A stretch of DNA of 64,000 bases from an uncultured Actinomycetes bacterium (GTDB taxonomy: Bacteria; Actinomycetota; Actinomycetes; Nanopelagicales; Nanopelagicaceae), in assembly GCA_903878415.1 (NCBI GenBank), contig CAIRHO010000004.1, positions 44,831 through 108,830 on the forward strand, in the 5' to 3' direction. Below the pieces are notes generated by a model. That model had not been told where the DNA came from. It did no database searches and saw nothing but the letters and a program-made list of their open reading frames with translations. The position numbers and the translations under genes were made by a program. Shown in pieces: positions 22,456 to 48,061 of this stretch (position 1 is its first letter; each line of letters begins with the position of its first letter).

Positions 22456-22474
22456 CCGTTAGGAATCGAGAAAA

Positions 22475-24960: not shown

Positions 24961-24988
24961 AGTAAGACAAGTATAAGTTGAAATTTGG

Positions 24989-25017: not shown

Positions 25018-25024
25018 CACGAAA

Positions 25025-33698: not shown

Positions 33699-35163
33699 GC
33701 CGCAAAGCTTCCGTTTGCGCTAGCAGAAATTCTTGAAATTTCTTCGCTGAATAATTTTTTTGAAGTACCGATGGTTCAGATTTTATCGAACTAAATCCTA
33801 ATCGCTTAGTGGATTCGCTCAAATTCTTGGTAATTAAAGCATGCGCCAAAATTGCAGATCCACGCGTAGTGGTATCAATATCTTCATATCGGGAGATTTC
33901 TCGCCCCAGCGTTTTCAATCTTATTTTCGCCCACCGTAGATCGTTCCCAGCATGTCCGCCTAGTTTGATCAGGGGGTTTATCGAACCGTTTAAACTTTCA
34001 GATGTTTCAATAACTTGCTTTTCAGCAAAGGAGATACCTTCTAATACCGATGCGGCTAGATCTGATTTATTGGTTTCGCCACCGATCCCATAAAAGCCAC
34101 CTTGCAAATCTGTGCGCCAAAGCGGGGCCCGTTCACCATATATATAAGGTAAAAAGATCGGTAAATCCGTACTTTGGGAGCGTTCCGCCAGGTCAATTAC
34201 CTCGTCTTGCGTGATTTCCAAAAGCGTGGAAATCCAAGAAACCGCGCTGCCGCTCGATTGAGTTGGTCCATATGTGATGGCAAATGGAGCGCAGGTATTA
34301 GGAATTATGTAGAGCGAGCCACCATCTTTAGGCGGCGTTCTGGTTGAGGCGCCAACAATTGCTGAAGTTCCAGTAATAATAAATGAACTTGGCTCGCTCA
34401 TAACGTTTAGAGCAACCATGCCGCACATAGCATCCGACCAACCAATACTTACCGGGATTCCGATTGGAAGTCCAAATTTTTTAGCAGCTGCATCGCTGAC
34501 GCCACCACGACTTTCGTAACCATCACCAAGTTCTGGAACTATTTTTGAATCCCAACCGATAAATTCCAATAAGTTGCTAATTGGTGCGCGCGTTAGCACA
34601 TTACAGATTCCTTTTGAAGACCAAGGATCTGAAATAGCTTTACCAGTTAGATGCATTCCTACAAAATCTTTTGGTTGTAATACCCACCGCGTTTTTTTGA
34701 CAATCTCGGGTTCGTGCCTTGCTAACCAAAATAGTTTTGCTGGGCAAGCGCTCGCTGCCCAAGGTAAAGATGTACCGATAATTTCAATTGGATTTCCATA
34801 CTTGGCTAGTAAATCTTGGGCTTCTTTAGTTGCTCGATTATCTTGCCAAGTCATCACTGGACGTAACGCATTGCCCGCGCTATCTACGCAAACAACCGAA
34901 GGTGTGTGCCCAGAGAGTCCAATTGAAATTACTTTAGAAATTAGATCTGAATTATTTTTTGATATCTCAACAACTGCTTTTAAATAATCTTCAGCGTTCT
35001 GCTCTGCATGTGAAACAGAAGTCGAGGCTGTAGATATTTTAATTTCTACGCGCTTCAAAATCTCGCCAGCATCGTCGATAAAAATAGCCTTAACTGACGA
35101 AGTGCCGAAATCTAATCCAAGGATTAGATTATTAGCCAAGACGACTCCATCGAACAATCGCAT
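33670..35163 (-). CDS. FGGY-family carbohydrate kinase (xylulokinase/sugar-acid kinase-like).
   Basis: LGLDFGTSSVKAIFID is the N-terminal phosphate-1 motif. It has an FGGY_N/FGGY_C layout and is 497 aa. The start is uncertain (ATG 35163 or TTG 35139). Confidence 0.8.
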   Translation of the reverse strand: MRLFDGVVLANNLILGLDFGTSSVKAIFIDDAGEILKRVEIKISTASTSVSHAEQNAEDYLKAVVEISKNNSDLISKVISIGLSGHTPSVVCVDSAGNALRPVMTWQDNRATKEAQDLLAKYGNPIEIIGTSLPWAASACPAKLFWLARHEPEIVKKTRWVLQPKDFVGMHLTGKAISDPWSSKGICNVLTRAPISNLLEFIGWDSKIVPELGDGYESRGGVSDAAAKKFGLPIGIPVSIGWSDAMCGMVALNVMSEPSSFIITGTSAIVGASTRTPPKDGGSLYIIPNTCAPFAITYGPTQSSGSAVSWISTLLEITQDEVIDLAERSQSTDLPIFLPYIYGERAPLWRTDLQGGFYGIGGETNKSDLAASVLEGISFAEKQVIETSESLNGSINPLIKLGGHAGNDLRWAKIRLKTLGREISRYEDIDTTTRGSAILAHALITKNLSESTKRLGFSSIKSEPSVLQKNYSAKKFQEFLLAQTEALRLADYKKGRG

Positions 35164-36340
35164 CTGGCCGCTGATTTATACCTGGTTGTAGCGCGGTGCC
35201 AAGCCCTGGCGTAGATGGTGGCGTCAAGAATCCATTTTCATATTTAGGAAGCACTGTGACCATATCTTGGTACCAGCCATAATAAAAGGCGCGAACCATT
35301 TCTTGTAATTCAACGTTTGGATAAGTCACGCCGAGATGAGTCCCAACCGTTAGTACGACCGGGCCAGTGCAATCATGCGGCGCAACCGGAACGCCATAGG
35401 TAGAAGCTAGCGCTATAACTTTTGAAGCTTCAGTAATACCGCCGACCCATCCTGGATCTAACATCAAGTGGTCAACCGCTTTCGATGAAAGCAATCGGTG
35501 ATGATCCCAACGAGTACCAGTAGTTTCACCAACCGTAATCGGTAAATTAATTGAATTTTTAAGACGGATTAACGCATCAGTACTTTCATTGCGAATTGGA
35601 TCTTCAAACCAGAACGGCGAATATTCCTCAACTGCATTAGCAATTATGGTTGCAGCTGGAGTTGACCAGAGCGAATGCATCTCTAACATGATGTCGAAAT
35701 CATCACCAGCGGCGACTCGTGCGCGTTTAAATAAATCCACCGCTTCCCATAAATCTTTCTTATGAATTGTTTGGCCGCCAGATCTAATAGCCGCTTCATC
35801 AAATGGCCAAATCTTCATCGCGGTCATCCCCATTGCCTTAAGGCTGGCCACTAAATCTTCTGGGTTATTTAAGAATGCAAAAAGATCCTCATATTCGTGA
35901 TCGGTAACAGTTCCGAGTTGAGCTTTACGATTCCTATCGATGTTGGAGGAACCTTTAGCGTAAGCAGAACCAGCACAAGTGTTGTAAGCGCGAATTTTAT
36001 CGCGCACCTTTCCACCGAGCAATTGATAAATTGGCTGCCCAGTTACTTGACCAAATAAGTCCCAAAGCGCGATATCTATTGACGATGTAGCTCGGACAGC
36101 GATGGAAGAGCCATTAAAACCAATAAAGTCTTGGTGTAAAACCTCGTGGATTTCATTGATATTTAGCGGGTTCTTTCCTAAAAGCCGCGGCGCAACGCTT
36201 TCATGTAGAAAAGTTTCAACGCTCTCGACGCCAACACAATTTTCACCAAGACCGATTAAACCTTCATCGGTATGAACTTGTAAAAACAAGATCGCTGGAA
36301 ATTCTGCTAAGCGAATAGTTTCTAACCCGGTAACTTTCAT
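35132..36340 (-). CDS. Enolase-superfamily (mandelate racemase/muconate lactonizing enzyme) sugar-acid dehydratase.
   Basis: MKVTGLETIRL...VHTDEGLIGLGE is the capping domain. The barrel has DIMLEMH, FEDP and GET metal-ligand contexts. The ATG at 36340 is preceded by a GGAG Shine-Dalgarno, and the ORF's TTG at 36343 is one codon upstream. Confidence 0.8.
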   Translation of the reverse strand: MKVTGLETIRLAEFPAILFLQVHTDEGLIGLGENCVGVESVETFLHESVAPRLLGKNPLNINEIHEVLHQDFIGFNGSSIAVRATSSIDIALWDLFGQVTGQPIYQLLGGKVRDKIRAYNTCAGSAYAKGSSNIDRNRKAQLGTVTDHEYEDLFAFLNNPEDLVASLKAMGMTAMKIWPFDEAAIRSGGQTIHKKDLWEAVDLFKRARVAAGDDFDIMLEMHSLWSTPAATIIANAVEEYSPFWFEDPIRNESTDALIRLKNSINLPITVGETTGTRWDHHRLLSSKAVDHLMLDPGWVGGITEASKVIALASTYGVPVAPHDCTGPVVLTVGTHLGVTYPNVELQEMVRAFYYGWYQDMVTVLPKYENGFLTPPSTPGLGTALQPGINQRPDAIVRWSRLG

Positions 36341-36437
36341 CAAAATTCTCCGTTCAGATATTGATTTCTAACGCAATCGCAGATACCCTCAATTGTTAAT
36401 TGTTAACGATAACGCGCAATCAGTCAAGGGGTAAACC

Positions 36438-37451
36438 ATGTCAGATCAAGTAAAAAACATTGGAGTATCAAGAGCCGAAGTTCTCGCTACCTCAGCGAAA
36501 ATATTGGAGAAGTTCGGAACCCCTAAAATTTATGCTGATTCAGTTGCCGAGTCATTAGTGCAAGCGCAAGAGGCGGGGCATGCCTCTCACGGAATAATTC
36601 GGTTGATTGAGTATACGAATTCAATCGAAAAGAAAGTGATTGACCCAGCAGCAGTACCAACAATTGTTCGCGAAACTGGCGGCACTGTTGTGGTGGATGG
36701 GCATTGGGGCTGGGGACAGATCGCCTGCAAATTCGCGGTAGAGGTTGCGGCTAAAAAAGCAAAAGAATTTGGCATCAGTGCAATCTCAATTAGTTCATGT
36801 AATCATATTGGTCGCTTAGGTGAATACATTGAAACACTTGCCAGCATGAATTTAATATCAATGATGTGGTGCAATGCAGATCCTGCAGTTGCTGCCTTTG
36901 GTGGTAAAGATCGTTTATTTGGTACAAATCCGCTTGCGGTTGGGATACCTTCGAATGACGTTCCAGTTGTAATTGATTTGGCAACTGCCGCTAGCGCAGA
37001 AGGAAAGTTACGAGTAGCTCGCGCAAACGGCAGCAAAATTCCATTAGGAACTGTTATTGATAAAGATGGAAATGAATCTACAAATCCAGATGATTTTTAT
37101 ACTGGTGGAGCGATACTTCCATTCGGTGGCCATAAAGGCTATTGCGTGAGCCTAATGATTGAGCTTTTGGGCGGTGCGCTATCGGGAAATCATCCTTCAA
37201 TGAACGCTGGATATTCACATGGATATGGCACCGTACTAATTGCAATTGATCCAGATAAGTTTTTTGGCACAGGATTTTTTAAGGATGAAATTTCGGAAGC
37301 AACAAAAGCGATTAGATCTACTACGCCAGCAAATCCAGAGCGCCCAGTATTAGTACCGGGAGATGTTGAAAATAACGAACGAAAAAAGAATAAAGCGGCG
37401 ATTCAAATATCAGAAGCTATTTGGAGTTCAATAAAAGAACTTAGCGCTTAG
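36438..37451 (+). CDS. Ldh_2 family (malate/L-lactate/L-sulfolactate dehydrogenase type 2) oxidoreductase.
   Basis: Family hallmarks are HGIIRLIEY, GHWGWGQ, NHIGRLGEY, FGTNP and FGGHKGY. Length is 337 aa. Confidence 0.8.
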   Translation: MSDQVKNIGVSRAEVLATSAKILEKFGTPKIYADSVAESLVQAQEAGHASHGIIRLIEYTNSIEKKVIDPAAVPTIVRETGGTVVVDGHWGWGQIACKFAVEVAAKKAKEFGISAISISSCNHIGRLGEYIETLASMNLISMMWCNADPAVAAFGGKDRLFGTNPLAVGIPSNDVPVVIDLATAASAEGKLRVARANGSKIPLGTVIDKDGNESTNPDDFYTGGAILPFGGHKGYCVSLMIELLGGALSGNHPSMNAGYSHGYGTVLIAIDPDKFFGTGFFKDEISEATKAIRSTTPANPERPVLVPGDVENNERKKNKAAIQISEAIWSSIKELSA

Positions 37452-38163
37452 CGACTCTCTTTTTTGGCTTAGGTTCTTCGACAAAGTGAGTAGCGACTCG
37501 AGCCAAACCGCGTTCTACGTGGCCAAGTACAGTCTCTTTTGCTTTTTCGACCTGCTTATTTCTAATAACTTCCACAAATACTTTGTGGTCGGGGCCCCAT
37601 TGAGGCAAAAATACTTTATTGATTTTTCCATCTTGCGACCAGGTGTAGACCAAGAACGCATGAATTTGCGAACGTAGAACTTCCCAAGTTTTAAATAGAC
37701 GTTCATGATGGGCTGCAGCAAATAGCGCAGTGTGGAATTCCAAATCTAACCGGCTGACTTCACGAGGCGTCCGTTGTTTTTCACTTAACTTACTGTATAC
37801 ATTTAGGATTTCTTCCATTGCTTTCAAATCTGAAGCGGTGGCGTTCTTGCAGGCCCACTCAATGGCTAGAACTTCTAGCGCGCTTCGCATCGAATAGATC
37901 TCTTGAATGTCAGTGTCATCCCATGACGCCACTCGCGCGCCTTTATGTCGCTCTATAGTTACTAAACCTTCGCGATCTAACCGCATTAGGGCTTCGCGAA
38001 TTGGTCCGCGTGATACGCCCATCTGTAACGCTAATTCATCTTCAGCTATTCGACGACCCGGTTCTAAATCATGCGAAATAATTGCATCGCGTAAATCATC
38101 AGTTACGACATCGGAAAGTACCCGACGTGAAGCGAGGCCAAGTCCTAGAGGTTTAAGTGCCAT
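37441..38163 (-). CDS. GntR-family transcriptional regulator (FadR/FCD subfamily).
   Basis: The N-terminal winged HTH (LRDAIISHDLEPGRRIAEDELALQMGVSRGPIREALMRL) is followed by an all-helical FCD-like C-terminal domain. Length is 240 aa. Confidence 0.85.
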   Translation of the reverse strand: MALKPLGLGLASRRVLSDVVTDDLRDAIISHDLEPGRRIAEDELALQMGVSRGPIREALMRLDREGLVTIERHKGARVASWDDTDIQEIYSMRSALEVLAIEWACKNATASDLKAMEEILNVYSKLSEKQRTPREVSRLDLEFHTALFAAAHHERLFKTWEVLRSQIHAFLVYTWSQDGKINKVFLPQWGPDHKVFVEVIRNKQVEKAKETVLGHVERGLARVATHFVEEPKPKKRVAKR

Positions 38164-38182
38164 TTTATTACTCCCGTTAAAC

Positions 38183-38200
38183 TGTTGTTTGTAAACAACA
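38183..38200. promoter_or_regulatory. Candidate GntR autoregulatory operator, an 18-bp palindrome.
   Basis: TGTTGTTT-gt-AAACAACA has perfect 8-bp arms and lies 20-37 nt upstream of the gntR-family start codon. It contains a TGTAAACA core (GT-Nx-AC type). Confidence 0.4.
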
Positions 38201-38284
38201 ATAGACCAGTCGTGCCATTACCGCATGGCGAAATAGGTGAGATAGCACCGAAAAGAGCAAGTATTACGCTGACAAAACGGACTT

Positions 38285-39097
38285 TTAGTAATCTCCGAGG
38301 GTTCCGCCAGCGTTATAGGCAAGGTTTCCACCATCAACTGGAAGGATCGTTCCGGTCACCATTGCGGCGGCATCGCTAGCCAAGAAGTGCACTGCGTGAG
38401 CGATATCTTCAGGTTCAGCAACTCGTCCCATTGGAATTCCGCGAACTAATAACTCCATTAACGGTTTCGCTTTTTCGCCTTCAGTCTCAACCCATTTGCG
38501 CCAACCAGGAGTATTTACCGAGCAAGGTTGAATCGCATTGACGCGAATTTTTGATTTTGCCCATTCAATTGCAAGCTCACGGGTCATCTGGTTAACGCCA
38601 CCTTTAGCAACGCTGTAAGCGAAGTTACCGCGACCAATTGCGGAGCTACCAGCAATTGAACTTATATTTACAATTGCGCCAGGCTTTTTTGCAGCAATAA
38701 CCAATTTAGAAAACTCGCGGGCGTTTAGGAAGTATCCAGTTAACGAAGTTCCGATAACGGTATCCCAGATTTCAAGAGTTGTGTCTTGCGGTGGTGTGTG
38801 AGTTCCAGCAGCAGCGTTATTTATCAAGATGTCAGCCATACCGAACTCTTTAGCAACAAACTTAAAGAGCGCAATCACATCAGCTTCAACGCTGGAATTT
38901 GCCTTGAATGTAACGGCGGAAACTCCACGAGCTGCTAGTTCTGCTTTGCCGGCAGCAAGACCGACTTCGTCGATATCAGCCATTATTAATTTGGCACCAT
39001 CGCCACCAAGTTGTCGGCAAACTTCCATACCGATTCCGCCAGCAGCGCCGGTAATTACGATTACTTTGCCATCTAAACTAAAAGCGTTTTTACTCAT
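38285..39097 (-). CDS. SDR family oxidoreductase.
   Basis: It has a TGAAGGIG motif and a YSVAK catalytic motif and is 270 aa. It is the last gene of the E1/lipoyl operon. Confidence 0.85.
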   Translation of the reverse strand: MSKNAFSLDGKVIVITGAAGGIGMEVCRQLGGDGAKLIMADIDEVGLAAGKAELAARGVSAVTFKANSSVEADVIALFKFVAKEFGMADILINNAAAGTHTPPQDTTLEIWDTVIGTSLTGYFLNAREFSKLVIAAKKPGAIVNISSIAGSSAIGRGNFAYSVAKGGVNQMTRELAIEWAKSKIRVNAIQPCSVNTPGWRKWVETEGEKAKPLMELLVRGIPMGRVAEPEDIAHAVHFLASDAAAMVTGTILPVDGGNLAYNAGGTLGDY

Positions 39098-39110
39098 TTT
39101 CTTTTCCTTT

Positions 39111-40097
39111 TTAGTAAGACATCACTTGTTTTACGGCTTTTGATATTTGATCCACTGAAGGAATTGCAGCCTCAGACATTGCTGGGTTTGCACTTAGCGG
39201 TGCCCGAACTGCGCCAACTCTAACAATTGGACCCTTTAACGATTTGAAATTGCGCTCAGAAGCAGTAGCCGCAATTTCTGCAGTAATAGAACCAAATAAT
39301 GGCGCTTCATCTAGTACGACTACGCGACCAAATTTTGTAACTGCCGCGTCAATGGCATCCTGATCAATTGGATAAAGAGTACGTAAATCAATGACTTCTA
39401 CCGATATTCCTTCTGCCTCCAGAGCTTGCGCCGCTTTAGTTGCAGTTACAGCAGAATAACCGTAAGTGATGATTGCGGCATCTTTACCAGCCTTAATCGT
39501 TTTGGCTTTACCAAATGGCACAAAGTAATTCTCGTCGCCAATTTCGCCACGGATACCGGACAACTTTTTATGCATTAAGAATATGACTGGGTCTTCGTTA
39601 CGAAGCGCAGTCTTAATTAGACCCTTCACATCCATAGGAGTTGAAGGAACTGCAAGAGAAAGCCCAGCGGTATGCGCGAAGAAAGATTCGAGCGAGTTGC
39701 AATGGTGAGCGCCACCAAGAGCGACCCCAGAAGTTGCTCTAATTACAAGCGGAACTGGCCGATCAAACATAAATCGAATTTTTGCCGCTTGGTTAATAAT
39801 TTCATCCATTGCACCAAGTGAGAAATCGATGAAATTTAAATCCACAATTGGATGGCATCCGTACATAGCGGCGCCCATACCTGCTGCAACCATCGCAGCT
39901 TCAGAGATAGGTGCATCTCGAACTTGTTTAAGACCGAATTCTTGCGCGATGCCTTTTACTTGCGCAAAATGGCCACCACGTTCTACCAAGTCGGTACCGA
40001 GAATAAATATTTTCTTATTGCGGTTCATCTCTTCGCGCACGCCAGATTGGAATGCTTCAGAATAGGTTGGGGTAACGGCCTTTACCTCAGTTGTCAT
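39111..40097 (-). CDS. 2-oxoacid (pyruvate/acetoin-type) dehydrogenase E1 component, beta subunit.
   Basis: It has transketolase pyrimidine-binding and C-terminal domains and is 328 aa. Its start overlaps the E1 alpha stop (ATGA at 40094-40097). Confidence 0.85.
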   Translation of the reverse strand: MTTEVKAVTPTYSEAFQSGVREEMNRNKKIFILGTDLVERGGHFAQVKGIAQEFGLKQVRDAPISEAAMVAAGMGAAMYGCHPIVDLNFIDFSLGAMDEIINQAAKIRFMFDRPVPLVIRATSGVALGGAHHCNSLESFFAHTAGLSLAVPSTPMDVKGLIKTALRNEDPVIFLMHKKLSGIRGEIGDENYFVPFGKAKTIKAGKDAAIITYGYSAVTATKAAQALEAEGISVEVIDLRTLYPIDQDAIDAAVTKFGRVVVLDEAPLFGSITAEIAATASERNFKSLKGPIVRVGAVRAPLSANPAMSEAAIPSVDQISKAVKQVMSY

Positions 40098-41080
40098 AGT
40101 TGTACTCCTAACTTTCCTGAATCTACCCCTTGGGTGATCGATGCAATTTCTGGCTCTGGTGAAGATTCGGCGAAAGCAACGGCTTCTTCAATTTCCTTAC
40201 GAACCGAAGCGCGCAGTTCTTCGACTTCAGCTTGAGTGGCAAATCCAGAAGAGATAACTACTTCAGTAAATTTATCGATTGGATCTTGAGTGGTTCGCCA
40301 TTGGGCGATTTCTTCTTGAGTTCGGTATTGCCCTTTTTCGCCTACGTTATGGCCGTAATACCGATATGTAAGCGCATTTATGAAGGTTGGACCCTCGCCG
40401 GCAAGCGCTCGCTCCCGGGCCTCGGAAACATACTTACGAACTTCAAGCACATCTTGACCATCGATGTTGTAGGCGGGTAATCCGAATCCAGATGCGCGCT
40501 TAGCTAGATCGCCGCCGCCAGTTACTCGGCCAACGAAAGTTTCCACCGCATATTGGTTGTTATCAACCAAAATAATTAAGGGGAGCTTCCAAATCGAAGC
40601 CATGTTAATGGATTCCCAAGTTCTACCGGTGTTCATACCACCGTCACCAACGAAACCAACCGCAATTTTCTTATCGCCGATATGTTGAATACCAAGGGCA
40701 GCCCCCATTGCAATTCCAACACCAGCACCAACAATTCCATTGCCACCGAAATGGCCTTCGGTAACTTCAGCTAAGTGCATCGATCCACCGCGTCCATGTG
40801 AAATTCCAGTTGATTTGGCGAACAACTCCGCCATAACAGATTTCGCAGAATAACCTTTTGCAAGAGTGTGGTGATGAGATCTATGCGTTGTGGCGATCAC
40901 GTCATCTTTTGCAATCGCAGACAAAGTTCCGACCGCGACCGCTTCTTGGCCGGAGGAGTTATGCATTCCGCCCGGGACCTTTCCGCGCAAACATAATTTA
41001 TCGGCAGTCTCTTCAAAATCTCGGATCACCATCATCTGACGCAATAGCGCTAACGCAGTGCTCTTATCTAACTTTGACAT
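40094..41080 (-). CDS. 2-oxoacid (pyruvate/acetoin-type) dehydrogenase E1 component, alpha subunit (TPP-binding).
   Basis: It has the TPP motif region GDGGMNTGRTWESINMA...NN (GDG...NN) and is 328 aa. Confidence 0.85.
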   Translation of the reverse strand: MSKLDKSTALALLRQMMVIRDFEETADKLCLRGKVPGGMHNSSGQEAVAVGTLSAIAKDDVIATTHRSHHHTLAKGYSAKSVMAELFAKSTGISHGRGGSMHLAEVTEGHFGGNGIVGAGVGIAMGAALGIQHIGDKKIAVGFVGDGGMNTGRTWESINMASIWKLPLIILVDNNQYAVETFVGRVTGGGDLAKRASGFGLPAYNIDGQDVLEVRKYVSEARERALAGEGPTFINALTYRYYGHNVGEKGQYRTQEEIAQWRTTQDPIDKFTEVVISSGFATQAEVEELRASVRKEIEEAVAFAESSPEPEIASITQGVDSGKLGVQL

Positions 41081-41083
41081 TAA

Positions 41084-41332
41084 CTACTCCACTTCGCCAG
41101 GTGCAAGCACCACAGCAATCGTATTTCCGGCAGGTACTTCTGTATTTGCGGCGTATCTATGTTTTCCGAGCACTCCTGATGTTTCAGCAGGTAAATCTAA
41201 AGTTGTCTTGTCAGTTTCAATTACGGCAACTACATCGCCGGCGTTTACTACATCGCCTGGCTGTTTCAACCATTCGAGCAACATTGCGTTATCCATCGCC
41301 ATCCCAAGTGCTGGCACAAATATCTCTTCCAT
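41084..41332 (-). CDS. Stand-alone lipoyl-attachment domain protein (82 aa).
   Basis: It has the biotinyl/lipoyl fold signature with the lipoyl-lysine motif VIETDKTTLDLPAE. A strong AAGGAG Shine-Dalgarno precedes it. It ends 3 nt before the E1 alpha start, and no E2 catalytic domain is attached. Confidence 0.8.
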   Translation of the reverse strand: MEEIFVPALGMAMDNAMLLEWLKQPGDVVNAGDVVAVIETDKTTLDLPAETSGVLGKHRYAANTEVPAGNTIAVVLAPGEVE

Positions 41333-41351
41333 TTATATATCTCCTTTATAT

Positions 41352-42323
41352 CTAGAAAGGGCCAGCTGCGAATTTGCCATTGCTAATCGTCTGTTTTGTA
41401 ATGAAATTTACTGCGTCCATTAATCCCCATTCGACTAAGCGAGGGCCTGAACTTTTCGAGTACCAAGCTATATGTGGCGAAAGTAATAAATTCTTGGTTT
41501 TACGAATTGGGGCATCTTCGGCTAACGGTTCCTTCTCAAATACATCGAGACCAGCTCCATCTAAGTGGCCACTTTCCAGTGCTTCCATTAACGCAGATTC
41601 GTCAATTAATCCACCGCGCGAAACGTTAACTAAAATCGACCCTTTTTGCATAAGCGCTAATTCGCGCTTGCCGATCATGTGGTGCGTTGATGGCATATAA
41701 GGAGCATGCATGCTTATAACTTTGCATTTTGTTAATAGCTCATCAAGATTTTTTGTCATGGTTACACCAGGAATGGCTTCATTAACTGCAGGGTCAAATC
41801 CAATTACATCTTTAACAAATGGTTGCATTTTCTTAATAAATGTTTGACCGATTCGACCGCATCCAATTACACCTAGCGTTGAATCTTGCAAAGAGGTAAT
41901 TTCGGCGATCTGAGTTGCTGGAATCCATTTACCATCCTGCGTAGTAGTGGTTGCTTGATAAATTCCTCGATGAAGTGCTAGCGCCATCGCAGCAGCATGG
42001 TTTGCAACTTCGTTATATGCATAAGTAGGTTGGAAAATTACCGGCAATTTATATTTTGCAGCAGCAACCAAATCAATGCTATCCAAGCCAACACCTAGTC
42101 GGCTAATGCACTTTACCGATTCCGGCATTTGTGAAATTTTCTCTTCAGTCATTTTATGAAGCGCTACAACTACAGCTGCACAATCTTTAGCAGTGGCTTG
42201 TAATTCTGCGAGCGTATCAACGGGGCCAAATACAACTTCAAAGTCGAATTTTTCAGAAACCGAAGTTGCCCAAGTTGGGTCGGCAAGCGCGCCTTCGGCA
42301 ATGGCAATTTTAACTTTTGGCAT
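41352..42323 (-). CDS. D-isomer-specific 2-hydroxyacid dehydrogenase (NAD-binding; phosphoglycerate/glyoxylate reductase-like).
   Basis: It has GVIGCGRIGQ Rossmann, SMHAPYMPSTHHMIG and ARGGLIDE-type (SRGGLIDE) motifs. The ATG at 42323 is preceded by AAGGAG, and the ORF's TTG at 42326 is one codon upstream. Confidence 0.85.
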   Translation of the reverse strand: MPKVKIAIAEGALADPTWATSVSEKFDFEVVFGPVDTLAELQATAKDCAAVVVALHKMTEEKISQMPESVKCISRLGVGLDSIDLVAAAKYKLPVIFQPTYAYNEVANHAAAMALALHRGIYQATTTTQDGKWIPATQIAEITSLQDSTLGVIGCGRIGQTFIKKMQPFVKDVIGFDPAVNEAIPGVTMTKNLDELLTKCKVISMHAPYMPSTHHMIGKRELALMQKGSILVNVSRGGLIDESALMEALESGHLDGAGLDVFEKEPLAEDAPIRKTKNLLLSPHIAWYSKSSGPRLVEWGLMDAVNFITKQTISNGKFAAGPF

Positions 42324-42355
42324 CAATTTCTCCTTGGATAAGCTCAGGGGTTTAC

Positions 42356-42363
42356 TGTATACA
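42356..42363. promoter_or_regulatory. Candidate GntR-type operator core TGTATACA in a divergent promoter region.
   Basis: This perfect 8-bp palindrome lies between the minus-strand E1/lipoyl operon (start 42323) and the plus-strand FAH operon (start 42430). TGTATACA is the core of classical GntR operators. Confidence 0.35.
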
Positions 42364-42429
42364 ATTTGCCATCTGAGGGGTAGTCTTTCGGCATATCAAT
42401 TTCGCCAAGCCCACTAGAGAGGAATAATC

Positions 42430-43086
42430 ATGAATTTGCCACTTCCTATGCCTGGAAAAGTCATTGCAGTTGGCTTGAATTACAAAGATCATGCAAAAGA
42501 AGCTGGAGTGCCACTTCCATTAGCGCCAGTTCTATTTACTAAGTGGACCACCTCTCTTATCCCGAATGGCGCAAACATCACTTTGCATAAGGGTGTAACT
42601 CAACTCGACTGGGAAGCTGAATTTGCAGTAGTTATTGGGAAGCGAGCAACACACGTTTCAGAGAGCGAAGCTCTGAGCTACGTTTCTGGCTATACCTGTA
42701 TGAACGATGTGACCGACCGTGAAGCTCAAGGTAAAGATGGTCAATGGGTGCGAAGCAAGTCATACGACACCTACGGCCCAATCGGACCAGTAATTGTGCC
42801 AGCGAGTCAGATTCCAGATCCACATAATCTCAAAATAGAAGCACGGTTAAATGGCAAGACCATGCAAACTAGCAATACCAGCAATTTGATCTTTAATGTG
42901 CCATATCTGATTTCATATATCAGCCAACGGATAACTTTAGAAGCCGGTGATGTCATAACTACTGGCACACCGCATGGAGTTGGAACTTTCTATAAGCCAC
43001 CTATCTTCATGCAAGATGGCGATGTAATTGAGATCGAGATCGAAAAAATCGGAATTCTAAAGAACCAAGTGGTAGCTGAGAAGTAA
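42430..43086 (+). CDS. Fumarylacetoacetate hydrolase (FAH) family protein (candidate 2,4-diketo-3-deoxy-sugar-acid hydrolase).
   Basis: It is a short single-domain FAH (218 aa). Motifs are KVIAVGLNYKDH, WEAEFAVVIGK and GDVITTGTPHGVG. Confidence 0.8.
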   Translation: MNLPLPMPGKVIAVGLNYKDHAKEAGVPLPLAPVLFTKWTTSLIPNGANITLHKGVTQLDWEAEFAVVIGKRATHVSESEALSYVSGYTCMNDVTDREAQGKDGQWVRSKSYDTYGPIGPVIVPASQIPDPHNLKIEARLNGKTMQTSNTSNLIFNVPYLISYISQRITLEAGDVITTGTPHGVGTFYKPPIFMQDGDVIEIEIEKIGILKNQVVAEK

Positions 43087-43853
43087 TGAGCTACAAAGGT
43101 TCAAAACATAAGCTCGCATTAATTACCGGTGGCGCTAACGGAATTGGATTAGCGACCGCCGATAATTTGGCGCAAAAAGGTTATGACCTTTTCTTAATTG
43201 ATAAAGATTTGTCTAATCTTGAAATAGCTAAAACCAGCCTGCTTAAACATGGGACTAGGGTAGAAGTCTTGAACCTCGATCTCTCCGACGGTGCAAATGT
43301 TTTAGAGGTGTTGAATAATAAAGCTGCTGAATTTGAGGTAGATGCGCTTGTGAACAACGCAGGGATAGGTTTTGCGCGAACCGTTGAACAGACCACGCTT
43401 GATGAATGGGATTTAACTTTCGATGTAAACATCAAAGCTACCTTCATTATGTGCAAAGTAATAGTGCCGCAGATGGTTAAAAGAGGTGGTGGCGTAATAG
43501 TTAACGTCGCATCCGCTGGCGCTCTGGTTGGCTTAAAAAATCGCGTTGCATACTGTGCATCTAAAGCTGCAGTAGTTGGCCTAACAAGATGTATCGCCGC
43601 CGATCATGCTCTCGATGGAATTCGAGTAAATGCAATTGCCCCAGGAACAGTTGACTCAACTTGGATTGGCCGAATTCTTTCCGACGCACCTGATCCAGTT
43701 GCAACTAGAAAATTAATGGAAGCTCGTCAACTTGATGGTCGAATGGGAACACCTGAAGAAGTTGCACACGGAATTGCATTCTTATTAAGTCCAGAAGCGC
43801 GCTTTGTAAATGGTTCAGTTTTTTCAATGGACGCTGGGCTAACTGCAGTATGA
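43086..43853 (+). CDS. SDR family oxidoreductase.
   Basis: It has TGGANGIG and YCASK motifs and is 255 aa. Its start overlaps the upstream stop by 1 nt (TAATG). Confidence 0.85.
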   Translation: MSYKGSKHKLALITGGANGIGLATADNLAQKGYDLFLIDKDLSNLEIAKTSLLKHGTRVEVLNLDLSDGANVLEVLNNKAAEFEVDALVNNAGIGFARTVEQTTLDEWDLTFDVNIKATFIMCKVIVPQMVKRGGGVIVNVASAGALVGLKNRVAYCASKAAVVGLTRCIAADHALDGIRVNAIAPGTVDSTWIGRILSDAPDPVATRKLMEARQLDGRMGTPEEVAHGIAFLLSPEARFVNGSVFSMDAGLTAV

Positions 43854-44458
43854 CCAGAACGTTTAACTCTGGTGTAATCGCTGTAATAAGAACAGATAAC
43901 CCTGATGATGCTTTATTAATAGCACGCGCGCTAAACGATACAGTTGTAGATTCAATCGAAGTGACGCTAACCGTTCCGAATGCAATTGAAGTTATTAAAA
44001 CTTTGGTAGGCGAAGGCGTAGAGCGCGTCGGTGCTGGAACAGTTAGAACCGTTGCCCAAGTTAACGAAGTAGCGAAAGTTGGCGGTTGCTTTGTTGTATC
44101 ACCGCACTCGGATCGCGAGGTTATTGAAGCTGCAGTTAAACATGGATTGCAAGTAACGCCCGGGGCAGTAACCCCAACTGAAATGGTGCAAGCCATGAAA
44201 TGGGGAGCTACTGCTGTAAAGATATTTCCAATTTGGGCAGTAGGCGGCATGGAGTATGTGCGAAGCGTTCTAGAACCGCTTCCCGATTTACCAATCGTTG
44301 TTTCAGGTGGTGCGACTCCAGAAGAAGTTAAAGAATATTTAAAATTAGGCGTAAAAGGAGTCTGTTTGGGCGGTGCCTTATGGAAGCAAGAGATTGTTTC
44401 TACCGGAAGTATCGCAGCCGCGTATGAATATGCAGCACAAGCACTTTCACGGATGTAA
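43850..44458 (+). CDS. eda: KDPG/KHG aldolase (2-dehydro-3-deoxy-phosphogluconate / 4-hydroxy-2-oxoglutarate aldolase).
   Basis: It is colinear with Eda: IEVTLTVPNA, GAGTVRT, VSPH, the Schiff-base lysine context VKIFP, and SGGA. It has an ATGA overlap with the upstream SDR. Confidence 0.8.
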   Translation: MTRTFNSGVIAVIRTDNPDDALLIARALNDTVVDSIEVTLTVPNAIEVIKTLVGEGVERVGAGTVRTVAQVNEVAKVGGCFVVSPHSDREVIEAAVKHGLQVTPGAVTPTEMVQAMKWGATAVKIFPIWAVGGMEYVRSVLEPLPDLPIVVSGGATPEEVKEYLKLGVKGVCLGGALWKQEIVSTGSIAAAYEYAAQALSRM

Positions 44459-44463
44459 CAAAA

Positions 44464-46830
44464 GTGGCGAAAGATTACGCTGATCTAGAGCAAATTCAGC
44501 GGAGAGTCCTGTGGCTAGCCACTCGAATGATTGACTATGCGAATAATGAAAGACCTAATGTTGACGGCATAAAAGTTGGTGGACATCAAGCTTCTAGCGC
44601 ATCGCTAGTTACAGTGATGACTGCGCTCTGGTTTAAATATTTAAAGGCTGAAGATCAAGTAAGTGTGAAACCGCACGCATCACCAATTTTACATGCGATT
44701 AATTATTTATTAGGAAATTTAGATAAAGATTATTTAACCAAACTTCGTTCCTTTGGCGGGCTGCAGTCATACCCATCAAGAACTAAAGACCCTGGGCGAA
44801 TAGATTTTTCAACTGGCTCGGTCGGGCTTGGTGCAGCTGCGCCACTTTTTAGTGGCGCAACTAGAAGGTATGTCGACTCTCACTTCGGAGAGCGTCCAAA
44901 ATCAAAGTTCATCGCACTAATTGGCGATGCCGAACTAGATGAAGGAAATATTTGGGAAGCGGTTTCAGATCCTGCAACTACAAATTTAGGAAATGTACTT
45001 TGGATTGTTGATTTCAATCGGCAATCGCTCGATCGAGTTATCCCCGGAGTTCGTATCCATCAATGGCGCCAACAATTTGAAGCGGCGGGTTGGAACGTTG
45101 CGGAAGTAAAATATGGTCAGAAATTAAAGAACGCTTTTAAAGAGCCAAATAGTGAAAGTTTCCAAAAATGGCTAGATCAAATTCCGAACGAGCAGTATCA
45201 ATCAATATTTGGGTTGGATCCGGCAGCGGCTAGAAATCGCTTTCTGGAAGGCGCCCCGCAATCAGTTATTGATTACTTTGCTGTAAAAAGTGATAGCGAA
45301 GTTTTAGAAATAGTAACTGACTTGGGTGGTCATGATTTCACGTCTCTGTTAGAAGAGCTAGTTAATTGCGAAAAAATTACAAATAAACCTAGTGTGATTT
45401 TTGCTTATACGGTAAAAGGTTGGGGTTTACCGTTAGCCGGAAATCCAAGAAACCACAGCGCATCACTAAATTCAACTCAGATTGATGAATTCAGAAAAGA
45501 ACTTGAACTAGATTTAGATACAGAGTGGGATCGCTTCAATTCTAAATCTATATCAGGTCAGATATGCGAACTTCGCAAATCTGAGTTGCAATTAGATAAT
45601 AAGGTTTCTAACATCGAGTGTCCGATTCCTGAGAAAACTGATCTCCAATTTAAAGCGAGTAATTCAACCCAAGAAGTTTTTGGGCGGATATTAACTACTC
45701 TGTCTAGAGACCCTGAACTTGTTAAATACATTGTTACTACTGCTCCTGATGTCGCTACTTCAACAAATCTTGGCGGATTTATAAATCGCGTTGGTGTTTA
45801 TTGCCCAACCGAAAAACGTGCTTGGAATGTGGATCCAGTTTTAAAATGGGCGGAAGGACCTACCGGCCAACATATTGAACTTGGCATAAGCGAGATGAAT
45901 CTCTTTATGTTGCTAGGCGCACTCGGGTTATCTGATATTCATTCTCATCAAAAATTGATTCCGGTGGGTACTGTTTATGATCCATTTGTTTTACGAGGCT
46001 TAGATTCACTTGTGCATGGGGTTTACTCCGGGTCTCGATTTATTGTTGCTGGGACACCCTCTGGAGTAACACTTGCCCCCGAAGGCGGCGCACATCAATC
46101 TTCGATAACTGCATCCGTTGGAATAGAGCTGCCTGGCATGGTTTTAATTGAACCGGCATTCGCGACTGCCTTAGATTGGCTCTTATGCGATGCGATTTCT
46201 GGCGTCGCAAAGCCAACTACAAAGAACGATAGAGAGTTAGTTTATTACTTCCGATTATCAACCCGATCAATCCTACAAGAAGTATTCGAGAGTGTACGAG
46301 TCAAAGTGGGCGATGCCGTCCTGCGTAACCAAGTTATAAGCGGTGCTTATCAATTAGTTGATGGTCGGCTTGCACTAGAAGTATTAGGGATATCTTCAGA
46401 ATTCGCACCCGAGGTTAATCTAGTTTCGACTGGGGTTGTAGCGCCAGAAGTTTTAGCAGCTGCTGAGGCTTTAGCAAATATTGGAATTATTGCAAATGTG
46501 TTTGATGTAGTGAGTCCAAGTCGGATCTATCATAATTGGCAGAGTTCGCTATCTAGTGCAATCAAAGAGATCAAATCAATAAAGAGTCAAAACTACTTGG
46601 AGACTCTGATATCCAATAATGCGCCAATTGTCTCTATTCATGATGCATCTTCGCATGCGATGGCGTGGCTCGGCTCCGCTCTTGGCGTACGTCAAATTTC
46701 CTTAGGGGTGAATGTCTTTGGGCAATCCGGCACAATTCCCGATCTTTATAAGGCAAACTTACTTGACACAGACTCAATCTTTAAAGCCGCAACGCACGCA
46801 ATAGGGATTTCTAGAAATAAAGAGAGATAG
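44464..46830 (+). CDS. Homodimeric-type (AceE-like) TPP-dependent 2-oxoacid dehydrogenase E1/transketolase-like protein, short form (788 aa).
   Basis: The N-terminus LEQIQRRVLWLATRMIDYANNERPNVDGIKVGGHQASSAS aligns, from memory, with an internal AceE segment (LERRIRSAIRWNA...LGGHMASFQSSAT). It has a GDAELDEGN TPP motif and a GTG start. Confidence 0.7.
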   Translation: MAKDYADLEQIQRRVLWLATRMIDYANNERPNVDGIKVGGHQASSASLVTVMTALWFKYLKAEDQVSVKPHASPILHAINYLLGNLDKDYLTKLRSFGGLQSYPSRTKDPGRIDFSTGSVGLGAAAPLFSGATRRYVDSHFGERPKSKFIALIGDAELDEGNIWEAVSDPATTNLGNVLWIVDFNRQSLDRVIPGVRIHQWRQQFEAAGWNVAEVKYGQKLKNAFKEPNSESFQKWLDQIPNEQYQSIFGLDPAAARNRFLEGAPQSVIDYFAVKSDSEVLEIVTDLGGHDFTSLLEELVNCEKITNKPSVIFAYTVKGWGLPLAGNPRNHSASLNSTQIDEFRKELELDLDTEWDRFNSKSISGQICELRKSELQLDNKVSNIECPIPEKTDLQFKASNSTQEVFGRILTTLSRDPELVKYIVTTAPDVATSTNLGGFINRVGVYCPTEKRAWNVDPVLKWAEGPTGQHIELGISEMNLFMLLGALGLSDIHSHQKLIPVGTVYDPFVLRGLDSLVHGVYSGSRFIVAGTPSGVTLAPEGGAHQSSITASVGIELPGMVLIEPAFATALDWLLCDAISGVAKPTTKNDRELVYYFRLSTRSILQEVFESVRVKVGDAVLRNQVISGAYQLVDGRLALEVLGISSEFAPEVNLVSTGVVAPEVLAAAEALANIGIIANVFDVVSPSRIYHNWQSSLSSAIKEIKSIKSQNYLETLISNNAPIVSIHDASSHAMAWLGSALGVRQISLGVNVFGQSGTIPDLYKANLLDTDSIFKAATHAIGISRNKER

Positions 46831-46841: not shown

Positions 46842-47744
46842 ATGACGGAGAACATTTGGTGCCAATGGCCAGATTTGACTATTCCAAATGGATTTAAGTT
46901 AACTAGTAAACCACTTGCTACTTTGAGCGAGACTGCACTCTCTGAAATAACTTTCTATGTGCCGCAATATATGGCTGGCTCGGCGGCTCTTACTTGGATA
47001 CCAAAAATGCCAAACTTGAAGATTGTTCAACTTCTTAATGCGGGGTACGACGATGCCATCGCTTATTTGCGACCTGGGTTAACGTTATTTAATGCCAAAG
47101 GCGTTCATGATCATTCAACTTCCGAACTGGCCTTAGCTTTAATGCTTGCAAAATTAAGGTTTATTCCAGAGTATGTAAAAAATCAAATTGCCGGTAAATG
47201 GGAACATACAAGCACTGGATCATTAGCTGATAAAACTGTGGCGATTGTTGGGTATGGCTCCATTGGAAAAACCTTTGAACATTTGATTGCAAACTTTCCA
47301 ATTAACATTTTAAGATTTGCGCAAACTGCAAGAGATAATGTTTATCCAATCTCTGAGATAAACAAATATCTACCTGAAATCGATGTTGTAGTTTTGATTG
47401 TTCCCTTAACCGATTCAACTCGAAATCTCTTTAATAAAGAGAAATTTGACTTGATGAAGCCAGGCGCATTAATAATCAATGTAGCTCGAGGAGCGGTAAT
47501 TAATACTGATGATTTATTGGAAGCGTTGAGAGCAGATCGAATCCATGCAGCTTTAGATGTTACTGATCCGGAACCACTGCCAGCCGGCCATCCATTATGG
47601 TCCGAGAAGAATGTTTTAATCGTCCCGCATGTTGGTGGCGATTCCACCTCCTTTGATCCGAGAGCTAGGAAACTGGTAACAGAACAGTTACTACGTATTT
47701 CTCAAAACAAAGCGATGGTTAATCAGATTGGGTGGGAGAAGTGA
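46842..47744 (+). CDS. D-2-hydroxyacid dehydrogenase family protein.
   Basis: It has a VGYGSIGK Rossmann motif, ARGAVINTDDL, and H at PHVGG. Length is 300 aa. Confidence 0.8.
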   Translation: MTENIWCQWPDLTIPNGFKLTSKPLATLSETALSEITFYVPQYMAGSAALTWIPKMPNLKIVQLLNAGYDDAIAYLRPGLTLFNAKGVHDHSTSELALALMLAKLRFIPEYVKNQIAGKWEHTSTGSLADKTVAIVGYGSIGKTFEHLIANFPINILRFAQTARDNVYPISEINKYLPEIDVVVLIVPLTDSTRNLFNKEKFDLMKPGALIINVARGAVINTDDLLEALRADRIHAALDVTDPEPLPAGHPLWSEKNVLIVPHVGGDSTSFDPRARKLVTEQLLRISQNKAMVNQIGWEK

Positions 47745-48061
47745 AATTTGCAGTCATGGTTGTTTTTAAAGTTCTGGAAGATAAAATCTCAGAATTTAGT
47801 GAGGCGCTAATCTGGCATAGTGAAAATACTTGGGGCGAGTCTGGTTCAATAAAATTCGTCATCTATGTTGATGAAGTAGATCCATCTATTTTTTATCTTT
47901 ATGAATTATATGAAAATCGCGGGGAGTTTGAAAAGCACACTAAGACCGACTACATCTCGGTTTTCAGCGGGAAAGCTAAGCCGCTACTTAGAGAACCATC
48001 CCAAATTTTCCGTGGCGTTCCACTTTTACCTAATCCAAAGTCAGAAAAGGGCAAAGTGTGA
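47732..48061 (+). CDS. ABM-domain (antibiotic biosynthesis monooxygenase/YgiN-like) small protein.
   Basis: The protein is 109 aa with a ferredoxin-like ABM pattern (VKFAVMVVFKV...YELYENRGEFEKHTKTDY). Its start is GTG. Its stop overlaps the ppdK start (GTGA at 48058-48061). Confidence 0.6.
   Translation: MGEVKFAVMVVFKVLEDKISEFSEALIWHSENTWGESGSIKFVIYVDEVDPSIFYLYELYENRGEFEKHTKTDYISVFSGKAKPLLREPSQIFRGVPLLPNPKSEKGKV

Follow-up and report, generated by a model that had tools for sequence, protein, structure and literature searches.

The acI Actinobacteria are the most abundant lineage of freshwater bacterioplankton and are globally dominant. In a 64,000-nucleotide stretch of DNA from an uncultured member of the Nanopelagicaceae (order Nanopelagicales; GenBank assembly GCA_903878415.1, contig CAIRHO010000004.1, positions 44,831 to 108,830), hereafter the window, we find a minus-strand operon that encodes both subunits of a thiamine diphosphate (ThDP)-dependent E1 component of a 2-oxoacid dehydrogenase together with a stand-alone lipoyl protein of 82 amino acids (aa), and neither the acyltransferase core of an E2 component nor an E3 component (dihydrolipoyl dehydrogenase). 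The same arrangement recurs across the acI loci sampled, and in orthologous gene islands of high-GC Actinomycetota a full-length E2 holds the slot of the lipoyl gene, which points to truncation of an E2 as its origin. With moderate confidence we regard the cassette as the acI version of a pyruvate dehydrogenase (PDH)-like 2-oxoacid dehydrogenase of actinobacterial sugar-acid islands, one that would work with housekeeping parts in trans.

The genes of the operon and the regulator downstream of it are, in the direction of transcription:

41352-42326, minus strand: D-isomer-specific 2-hydroxyacid dehydrogenase, 324 aa (PF02826 and PF00389), the first gene of the operon
41084-41332, minus strand: stand-alone lipoyl protein (LIP), 82 aa (PF00364, E = 5e-15)
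40094-41080, minus strand: E1 alpha, ThDP-dependent, PDH-like, of the heterotetrameric type, 328 aa (PF00676, E = 1e-78)
39111-40097, minus strand: E1 beta, 328 aa (PF02779 and PF02780)
38285-39097, minus strand: short-chain dehydrogenase/reductase (SDR) oxidoreductase, 270 aa (PF13561 and PF00106), the last enzyme gene of the operon
37441-38163, minus strand: GntR/FCD transcriptional regulator (PF00392 and PF07729)

The open reading frames (ORFs), their coordinates and order and their Pfam families agree with a preliminary description of this DNA, which had listed the first five genes and omitted the regulator. In the ORF list the 2-hydroxyacid dehydrogenase starts at 42326, and the ATG taken in the preliminary description is at 42323. 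Gaps of 19 nt and 3 nt separate this gene from the lipoyl gene and the lipoyl gene from E1 alpha, the genes for E1 alpha and E1 beta overlap by 4 nt, and 13 nt lie between E1 beta and the SDR gene. The lipoyl gene has a strong AAGGAG ribosome-binding site 8 nt 5' of its ATG; its stop codon TAG is followed by tta and then by the ATG of E1 alpha, and no terminator-like site was seen on the minus strand inside the cassette. A scan for sigma-70-type promoters over 37300-42600 returned 0 consensus-like sites, against 9.0 +/- 2.8 in dinucleotide-preserving shuffles; this marked depletion spans the cassette and the divergent intergenic region at 42327-42429.

The absence of the remaining components was assessed in two ways. 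With the exception of the incomplete giant ORF at 4-10677, the proteins of all 50 genes from ORFs of 150 aa or more were searched with Pfam, together with the lipoyl ORF and an ORF of the ABM fold. Among these window proteins there was no match to the E2 catalytic domain PF00198, no pyridine-nucleotide-disulfide oxidoreductase of the kind that makes up the E3 flavoprotein, and no lipoate ligase or synthase gene (LplA, LipB, LipA). Two hidden Markov models (HMMs) were then built from sequences of distant loci, one for the E2 catalytic domain (15 sequences) and one for E3 (3 sequences), and run with the HMMER filters off (--max) on every stop-to-stop segment, in six frames, of the window and 43 related loci. 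Nothing below E = 0.6 was found with either model in the six frames of the window or of 42 acI loci, and a true E2 broken by frameshifts in locus L004, which served as a positive control, was detected by the E2-core model at E = 9e-13. The preliminary description had proposed that the lipoyl ORF stands alone with no decayed catalytic domain beside it, and both the 3-nt gap to E1 alpha and the six-frame search for the PF00198 core (E >= 0.6 throughout the window) confirm this. It had also remarked on the lack of an E3 gene nearby. That absence holds in the window and the 43 loci, and its peculiarity does not, since relatives of the cassette with a full E2 lack the gene as well; E3 is commonly shared and encoded elsewhere in the genome.

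The lipoyl protein has the hallmarks of an E2-type lipoyl domain. PF00364 is the only Pfam family that it matches, and the glycine-cleavage H-protein domain is not among its matches. In NCBIfam it agrees best with the lipoyl domains at the N-termini of AcoC, lipoyl-E1 beta fusions, E2p (the pyruvate-type E2) and E2o (the 2-oxoglutarate-type E2). It carries the motif ETDKT rather than the (A/V)MKM motif of biotinylation, and models of the biotin carboxyl carrier protein (BCCP) type score at most 25 bits, against 50-60 bits for lipoyl E2 models. In phmmer alignments with sequences from the PDB, the lysine of ETDK, K42, is aligned with the lipoyl-lysine of both human E2p lipoyl domains. An AlphaFold2 model computed with 42 homologues as input is a flattened beta-barrel with a mean pLDDT (predicted local distance difference test) of 94.6, in which K42 lies in the turn at residues 40-43 that joins strands 34-39 and 44-48; the modifiable lysine anticipated from the sequence is thus present at a hairpin tip in the structural model. 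The top Foldseek neighbours of the model are solved E2 lipoyl domains, with biotinyl (BCCP) domains ranking lower. E39-T40-D41-K42 is invariant in 40 of 40 orthologous lipoyl sequences, and K42 is accordingly the predicted lipoyl-lysine on both sequence and model. The protein ends in ...APGEVE straight after the lipoyl fold and lacks a peripheral-subunit-binding domain (PSBD). It is not a chance ORF, because 110 database clusters match it, nearly all of them 82-83 aa long and 55-99% identical. These entries are labelled either 'lipoyl domain-containing protein' or 'E2 component', with several sources giving 'pyruvate dehydrogenase E2 component'.

The cassette is not restricted to this genome. 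When species-representative genomes were queried with E1 alpha, a 100% match was found in BJFY01000004.1, from a metagenome-assembled genome (MAG) named as an LBMAG Actinomycetes bacterium of acI, and 38 further loci at 61-99% identity were all from MAGs of acI, Nanopelagicales or Candidatus Planktophila. The next relatives in that scan drop to at most 45% identity, and wherever a lipoyl-bearing gene was found beside E1 in these distant loci, it encoded an ordinary E2 of 420-490 aa. An ORF of 82-84 aa for the lipoyl protein adjoins E1 alpha in 39 acI loci, so that the combination of E1 alpha and beta with a miniature lipoyl protein, singled out in the preliminary description, is borne out by its gene neighbourhoods. 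The conserved order in acI is 2-hydroxyacid dehydrogenase, lipoyl protein, E1 alpha, E1 beta, SDR and GntR. The 2-hydroxyacid dehydrogenase gene stands directly upstream of the lipoyl gene in 32 acI loci, the SDR gene follows E1 beta in most of them, and the GntR/FCD regulator follows the SDR gene in 29. The variants concern the outer genes: L033-L037 have neither the SDR gene nor the regulator after E1 beta, and L039, which also lacks the 2-hydroxyacid dehydrogenase and SDR genes, retains only the trio of lipoyl protein, E1 alpha and E1 beta amid genes for peptidases and peptide transport. Since the trio occurs alone there, the lipoyl-E1 unit is not tied to one sugar. The unit is fixed across the acI/Nanopelagicales loci sampled and is no peculiarity of one window. 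Among acI loci the median pairwise ratio of nonsynonymous to synonymous substitution (dN/dS) of the lipoyl gene is 0.09, and the values for E1 alpha and E1 beta are 0.07 and 0.02, respectively; the lipoyl gene is therefore under purifying selection comparable to that on E1 alpha.

The E1 subunits have retained their catalytic motifs. All 39 E1 alpha sequences compared share the ThDP motif G145-D-G...N174-N175 and H244, the counterpart by alignment of the histidine in the human YHGHS loop, and all 38 E1 beta sequences compared share E66 and H132, whose alignment partners in Geobacillus E1 beta lie in the PlaE and lHS motifs. We take H244 of the alpha loop and H132 of the beta subunit to be the histidines for reductive acylation of lipoamide, and E66 to be the ThDP-activating glutamate. 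Because dN/dS is low and the E1 motifs and K42 are invariant, the system looks catalytically intact and the lipoyl gene does not appear to be a decaying remnant. The family placement is less specific. The best PDB match of E1 alpha is human PDH E1 alpha (216 bits) and that of E1 beta the beta subunit of a Thermus 2-oxoacid dehydrogenase (235 bits); E1 alpha scores 344.1 bits against TIGR03182 (PDH_E1_alph_y; cut-off 393.85) and E1 beta 267.9 bits against NF006667 (cut-off 321). The E1 appears PDH-like and is not assignable to PDH, and we treat its substrate as a hypothesis only, because all assignments fall below curated cut-offs. The flanking enzymes are similarly placed. The 2-hydroxyacid dehydrogenase, the presumed supplier of the 2-oxoacid for E1, lies below every NCBIfam equivalog cut-off and has among its PDB relatives PGDH, glyoxylate/hydroxypyruvate reductase, D-LDH and 2-ketogluconate reductase, while the nearest families of the SDR are glucose 1-dehydrogenase, gluconate 5-dehydrogenase and BudC, all under cut-off. 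Homology in PDB and NCBIfam thus goes no further than broad families for E1 alpha, E1 beta, the 2-hydroxyacid dehydrogenase and the SDR, and we rejected it as a means of assigning substrates. The E1 beta proteins of acI share a conserved C-terminus ...VM(K/S)Y, and those of the full-E2 relatives end otherwise. By analogy with PSBD-binding E1 betas such as that of the Geobacillus structure, this tail is suggestive of docking to some PSBD, and we give the likeness little weight.

What could be the source of a lipoyl domain without its core? A profile of the acI lipoyl alignment was searched against 1.8 billion representative proteins. The output was dominated by multi-lipoyl E2s and was useful only for picking single-domain full-length relatives. 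The nearest relatives of the acI protein among these are the N-termini (MEEIFVPALGMAMEEA...) of single-lipoyl proteins of 372-405 aa, which carry PF00198 with an intact DHRxxDG motif behind the lipoyl domain. Full-E2 proteins of this kind, among them P0243, P0265 and P0362, belong to uncharacterised cassettes in high-GC Actinomycetota (loci L085-L088). The full-length E2 genes, each encoding a lipoyl domain and PF00198, are located as follows:

L085, 8001-9092: E2 of 363 aa
L086, 8001-9071: E2 of 356 aa
L087, 8001-9131: E2 of 376 aa

L085 is a single operon, preceded by a GntR/FCD gene, in which E1 alpha, E1 beta, a FAH-family hydrolase, an SDR, an aldolase, an Ldh_2 family dehydrogenase, the 2-hydroxyacid dehydrogenase, E2, another SDR and a metallo-beta-lactamase (MBL)-fold protein follow one another. 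In L086 the order is a DHDPS-family gene, 2-hydroxyacid dehydrogenase, E2, E1 alpha, E1 beta and SDR, and in L087 it is FGGY kinase, MBL, 2-hydroxyacid dehydrogenase, E2, E1 alpha and E1 beta. The 2-hydroxyacid dehydrogenase gene stands directly upstream of the lipoyl or E2 gene in all of L085-L088, and a GntR/FCD gene accompanies the cassettes L085, L087 and L088. Identity to the window proteins amounts to 53-60% for E1 alpha, 57-64% for E1 beta and 54-60% for the lipoyl domain. Orthologues of further genes of the surrounding acI island accompany the full-E2 cassettes as well (MBL 46-62%, FGGY 44%, Ldh_2 40% and FAH 44% identity). The contigs with a full E2 have a G+C content of 66-71%, against 43.6% in the window.

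Aligned with these proteins, the acI protein reaches only two or three residues into the Ala/Pro/Glu-rich linker of the full-length E2s. Because a full E2 holds the same slot in the orthologous islands, we conclude that the acI lipoyl protein is an E2 truncated to its lipoyl domain and not a member of a separate carrier family. The simplest history is a deletion, in an ancestor of the sampled acI lineages, that took out the catalytic core along with the linker and the subunit-binding region. The preliminary description had seen here a distinct kind of free lipoyl carrier; its observation stands, and of its interpretation the part that invoked borrowing in trans is retained, while the separate 'orphan carrier' gives way to a truncated E2. 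No E3 gene is encoded in the full-E2 cassettes L085-L087 either, so that the system already relied on housekeeping help in trans before the truncation took place. The full-length E2s are themselves unusually compact: only a short LSPR(Q/R)RR motif lies between the lipoyl domain and the core, and a complete PSBD is not recognisable in the high-GC proteins.

Two apparent variants of the cassette were set aside. Database entries of 412 aa (P0379, P0390-P0392) suggest a natural fusion of the lipoyl protein to E1 alpha through the sequence ...PGEVE-Q-L-MS..., and the DNA of two contigs (L089 1796-1804 and L090 596-604) reads gag TAG ttg ATG at this place. The fusion is an artefact in which TAG was translated as glutamine, apparently because short contigs had been given an alternative genetic code, and such calls had merged the lipoyl protein and E1 alpha into one 90% cluster. 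The other is a split E2 in L088, where P0307, a protein with PF00198 only, follows a lipoyl ORF of 106 aa. It could pass for an evolutionary intermediate and most likely reflects a long-read frameshift; we do not use it as evidence, because the contig holds other split genes. L088 is frameshift-rich in the same way as L004, with HpcH in two pieces and E1 alpha, E1 beta, E2 and MBL split. Both L004 and L088 are long-read metagenome contigs from the ENA 'contig_' assemblies ERZ250395xx/ERZ250394xx, and P0094 (130 aa), P0105 (125 aa) and P0182-P0191, which come from frameshifted assemblies, should not be counted as natural variants.

The cassette is embedded in an island of catabolic genes, with the following members:

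30987-31793, plus strand: MBL-fold lactonase-like protein (Pfam, NCBIfam)
31794-32456, minus strand: Sua5/YrdC-like protein (PF01300; TIGR00057 67 bits, cut-off 123)
32457-33698, minus strand: FMN-dependent L-lactate-dehydrogenase-like protein (Pfam, NCBIfam)
33670-35163, minus strand: FGGY kinase (Pfam, NCBIfam)
35132-36343, minus strand: enolase-superfamily acid-sugar dehydratase (Pfam, NCBIfam)
36438-37451, plus strand: Ldh_2 family dehydrogenase (Pfam, NCBIfam)
42430-43086, plus strand: FAH-family hydrolase, divergent from the cassette (Pfam)
43086-43853, plus strand: SDR, divergent from the cassette (Pfam)
43850-44458, plus strand: KDPG/KHG-type aldolase, divergent from the cassette (Pfam)

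In most acI loci the genes from 30987 to 37451 and an ABC sugar transporter occur together with the cassette, and in most the FAH, SDR and aldolase genes adjoin it. The presence of FAH, SDR, aldolase, dehydratase, FGGY, MBL and Ldh_2 genes supports the earlier view that a sugar-acid pathway flanks the cassette. Judged by their families, the FAH, SDR and aldolase proteins would match a non-phosphorylative route with a 2-keto-3-deoxy-acid 4-dehydrogenase and a diketo-hydrolase. Deoxyhexoses are degraded by this 2-keto-3-deoxy-acid route to pyruvate and lactate. Non-phosphorylative oxidation and hydrolysis of a pentose-derived 2-keto-3-deoxy acid gives pyruvate and glycolate (PMC6336799). Within the island, the FAH-family gene reaches 231 bits against NF053535 (2,4-didehydro-3-deoxy-L-rhamnonate hydrolase), under the cut-off of 500, the dehydratase is more like galactonate/mannonate dehydratases than like fuconate dehydratase, and the MBL, FGGY and Ldh_2 genes show a faint likeness to ascorbate/diketogulonate genes. 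A specific sugar could not be assigned to the island, the NCBIfam matches being below curated cut-offs, and a literature search on Planktophila with fucose or rhamnose found nothing. The Sua5/YciO/YrdC-family gene between the FMN-dependent dehydrogenase and the MBL gene keeps its position in many acI loci and is an odd companion for catabolic genes.

On the other side of the aldolase gene the island continues with a second ThDP enzyme:

44464-46830, plus strand: homologue of the AceE-type homodimeric E1, 788 aa (TIGR00759 204 bits, cut-off 860)
46842-47744, directly after the AceE-like gene: second D-2-hydroxyacid dehydrogenase
47732-48061: ABM-fold protein
48058-50769: pyruvate phosphate dikinase

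The match of the AceE-like protein to TIGR00759 begins at model position 77, the N-terminal segment of AceE being missing. Its gene recurs at 81-98% identity in L005, L006, L008 and L009; L012, L019 and L041 have it at another place with 57-58% identity, and many other acI loci lack it. The island thus contains two types of E1, each adjoining a 2-hydroxyacid dehydrogenase, and the AceE-like one is also partner-less. Farther upstream, a block at 21058-26791 holds small-acid and sugar genes, among them:

21058-22455: FAD-linked oxidase, GlcD/D-lactate-dehydrogenase-like
22475-23230: acetoacetate-decarboxylase-family (ADC) protein

The same block also encodes an SDR, an aldo-keto reductase, a ribokinase-like PfkB kinase and a DHDPS-family aldolase, and genes of the DHDPS and ADC families recur beside the cassette in other acI loci. 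At the far end of the window a giant ORF on the plus strand (4-10677, at least 3557 codons, listed from window base 4) is followed at 10674-13442, also on the plus strand, by a gene whose 922-aa product has fn3 and He_PIG domains and is OmpA-like at its C-terminus; the two are probably a pair of cell-surface proteins.

How could an E1 with an arm and no core turn over? E1 components require a folded cognate lipoyl domain as their substrate and use free lipoamide very poorly, while E2 cores and E3 accept non-cognate or even free dihydrolipoamide; owing to this asymmetry the lipoyl domain would be retained and the core would be dispensable. We propose that two enzymes, the D-2-hydroxyacid dehydrogenase of the cassette and the island's FMN-dependent L-2-hydroxyacid dehydrogenase, supply a 2-oxoacid. 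As a conservative guess this would be pyruvate or a closely related small 2-oxoacid, which fits because D- and L-specific 2-hydroxyacid dehydrogenases stand beside E1 and pyruvate phosphate dikinase is near; the pyruvate could come from lactate or from the keto-deoxy-acid hydrolase and aldolase steps encoded next door. E1 alpha-beta would decarboxylate this 2-oxoacid by means of ThDP and then reductively acylate a lipoyl group that we infer to be attached to Lys42 of the free 82-aa protein, which would have been kept since E1 requires a cognate lipoyl domain as protein substrate. The acyl group would pass to CoA on a housekeeping acyltransferase in trans, either the single actinobacterial E2 or the E2-like (E2o) domain of OdhA, and the dihydrolipoyl protein would be re-oxidised by the housekeeping dihydrolipoyl dehydrogenase (Lpd). 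Genomes of acI are described with one annotated E2 and an OdhA-type E1o that has a partial E2 domain (PMC5301498), and a complete PDH module has been reported in 48 Nanopelagicales isolates (PMC12817590). The dependence of OdhA on lipoyl-lysine supplied in trans by E2p has been established experimentally in corynebacteria (PMC10415282). The top matches of our profile search, P0111, P0117 and P0120, were considered as the housekeeping E2 of acI and rejected, as they are not acI proteins. Of the readings that the preliminary description offered, the borrowing of housekeeping E2 and E3 in trans is the one best supported by the comparative data, in which the full-E2 relatives are already without E3. 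The preliminary description also suggested that the flanking dehydrogenases could feed E1 an acyloin.

Several points weigh against this proposal. The presence of a housekeeping E2 and Lpd is taken from two papers on other acI strains (PMC5301498, PMC12817590), and any contact of the alpha-beta E1 or the lipoyl protein with the actinobacterial E2p trimer or with OdhA is hypothetical. A diffusible carrier of 9 kDa forfeits substrate channelling and would be kinetically poor unless abundant. Both E1 subunits remain below the NCBIfam cut-offs for PDH equivalogs, and the 2-hydroxyacid dehydrogenase resembles glycerate/hydroxypyruvate and 2-ketoaldonate reductases too. Moreover, acI already has a housekeeping pyruvate E1 of the AceE type, which would make a second one somewhat redundant. 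A more far-reaching possibility, which we put forward tentatively and hold to be less than probable, is that the lipoyl protein acts as a diffusible 'untethered swinging arm', charged by the catabolic E1 and discharged by non-cognate machinery; this part could fall to OdhA with its lipoyl-less E2o domain, to the minimal, trimeric E2p of actinobacteria or to an E2-independent step.

A route wholly independent of E2, which is the diffusible carrier of the preliminary description, would go further, with E1 charging the free lipoyl protein, the acyl group being discharged by something other than an E2-type acyltransferase, and only the re-oxidation left to Lpd. Discharge might then proceed by hydrolysis to the free acid, by transfer to the thiol of CoA or mycothiol (non-enzymatically or by an unrelated enzyme), or by hand-off to an enzyme of the island. 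The loss of the core is clean and stable across the clade, implying that an acyltransferase in cis is dispensable, and in one lineage (L039) the trio of lipoyl protein, E1 alpha and E1 beta is conserved alone. Nevertheless, comparison with the full-E2 cassettes reveals no extra acI gene able to replace the core, the ancestral system made acyl-CoA through a normal DHRxxDG E2, hydrolysis would waste a thioester in an energy-limited oligotroph, and no precedent was found in the literature searched, so that we consider such a route unlikely. It is more doubtful still that E1 alpha-beta acts mainly without the lipoyl group, as a non-oxidative decarboxylase or as a carboligase or acyloin-cleaving enzyme on a sugar-derived substrate, with only a subsidiary function for the lipoyl protein, in regulation or as an occasional acceptor of electrons. 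The N-terminus of AcoC, from acetoin dehydrogenase, is indeed the best NCBIfam match of the lipoyl protein, SDR and 2-hydroxyacid dehydrogenase genes flank E1 as diol or acyloin chemistry would have it, and the AceE-like protein provides a second partner-less ThDP enzyme 3 kb away. These likenesses are set against a lipoyl gene that is as constrained as E1 alpha and translationally tight with it across the 3-nt gap, against the invariance of K42 and of the residues aligned with the reductive-acylation histidines, and against the full E2 of the orthologous systems.

There are small free lipoyl proteins that act in a relay or in some other non-classical way (GcvH, GcvH-L, LbpA), and the acI protein might by the same token be a lipoyl or octanoyl relay or store, comparable to GcvH in the Bacillus relay, that was kept after decay of the E2. 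We judge this highly improbable: the protein is of the E2-type PF00364 and not of the GcvH type, its gene is always immediately upstream of E1 alpha even when the rest of the cassette is gone, and no lipoate ligase, transferase or synthase gene is found among the window proteins scanned with Pfam. The idea that the ORF is a non-functional remnant or an artefact of annotation or assembly, such as a frameshifted E2, draws on the error-prone long-read contigs that do split true E2s into lipoyl and catalytic pieces (L004, L088). It is effectively refuted by the 3-nt gap to E1 alpha with no E2-like sequence in any frame, by the recurrence of an 82-84 aa ORF in some 40 independent assemblies and in 110 clusters of proteins, by the dN/dS of 0.09 and by the strong ribosome-binding site.

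The acI cassette shares some features with known systems and differs from them in others. With the 2-oxoacid dehydrogenase complexes (PDH, the branched-chain BCKDH and the acetoin type) it shares a heterotetramer-type E1 with the ThDP motif GDG...NN and a transketolase-like beta subunit, as well as a lipoyl domain with a modifiable lysine at the tip of a beta-hairpin; unlike theirs, its lipoyl polypeptide has neither the PF00198/DHRxxDG acyltransferase core nor the PSBD that tethers E1 and E3. The high-GC actinobacterial cassette has the same gene order and partners (MBL, FGGY, Ldh_2, FAH, aldolase and GntR/FCD) and differs in its compact E2 of 356-376 aa, composed of a lipoyl domain, a linker and a PF00198 core with DHRxxDG. 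In acetoin dehydrogenase (AcoA/AcoB/AcoC/AcoL) a catabolic alpha-beta E1 is likewise often found beside SDR-type diol or acyloin dehydrogenases, whereas the acI cassette has neither the catalytic part of AcoC nor AcoL/E3; the match of the lipoyl protein to NF011457 (AcoC), 59.7 bits against a cut-off of 307, covers positions 4-80 of 372, which is the generic lipoyl domain only, and nothing in the comparison speaks for acetoin as the substrate. In the lipoyl-E1 beta fusions of alphaproteobacterial-type PDH (NF008854, PRK11892), too, a lipoyl domain goes with E1 and not with the E2 core. On the 464 positions of NF008854 the window lipoyl protein covers 4-82 and E1 beta 137-462, both far under the cut-off of 454 bits. 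There, however, the domain is fused to E1 beta, whereas in acI it is a separate gene upstream of E1 alpha that derives from truncation of an E2; complexes with such fusions still include a full E2.

A parallel in logic is the sharing of parts in trans among the 2-oxoacid dehydrogenases of Corynebacterium and Mycobacterium, made up of OdhA (Kgd), AceF/E2p and Lpd. OdhA combines E1o with an E2o catalytic domain, has no lipoyl domain and uses the lipoyl-lysine of E2p (PMC10415282). The acI cassette is its mirror image, an E1 with its own lipoyl domain and no acyltransferase core; it differs in that the lipoyl domain is a free protein and not part of E2p, and an interaction between the two systems is hypothetical. 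The GcvH-family carriers (the glycine-cleavage H protein, LbpA of sHdr, GcvH-L) resemble the proposed acI carrier as small free lipoylated shuttles between separate enzymes, but they belong to another domain family and their systems use no ThDP E1. In the literature searched we found no description of a stand-alone E2-type lipoyl protein working with an E1, the free carriers described there being only GcvH-like, such as LarG of Pelobacter.

The textbook example of a swinging arm tethered to an E2 core is the 2-oxoacid dehydrogenase complex, against which a natural system that lacks the core and keeps the arm as a free protein is informative. If the proposed mechanism is true, the recognition of the lipoyl domain by E1 would be the non-substitutable step, while acyl transfer and re-oxidation could be outsourced. 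The cassette would complement OdhA, a core without an arm, and bears on the question of lipoyl domains that serve several active sites in actinobacterial 'supercomplexes'. The full-E2 orthologues of high-GC relatives constitute a natural control for it. Metabolic reconstructions of acI are affected as well, since the label 'pyruvate dehydrogenase E2 component' overstates what the gene encodes. The loss of the core provides an example of genome streamlining at the level of domains. Should the arm prove to be untethered, acI would possess a natural, fully modular and non-assembled 2-oxoacid dehydrogenase network, in which carriers, acyltransferase cores and E3 are mixed and matched among pathways.

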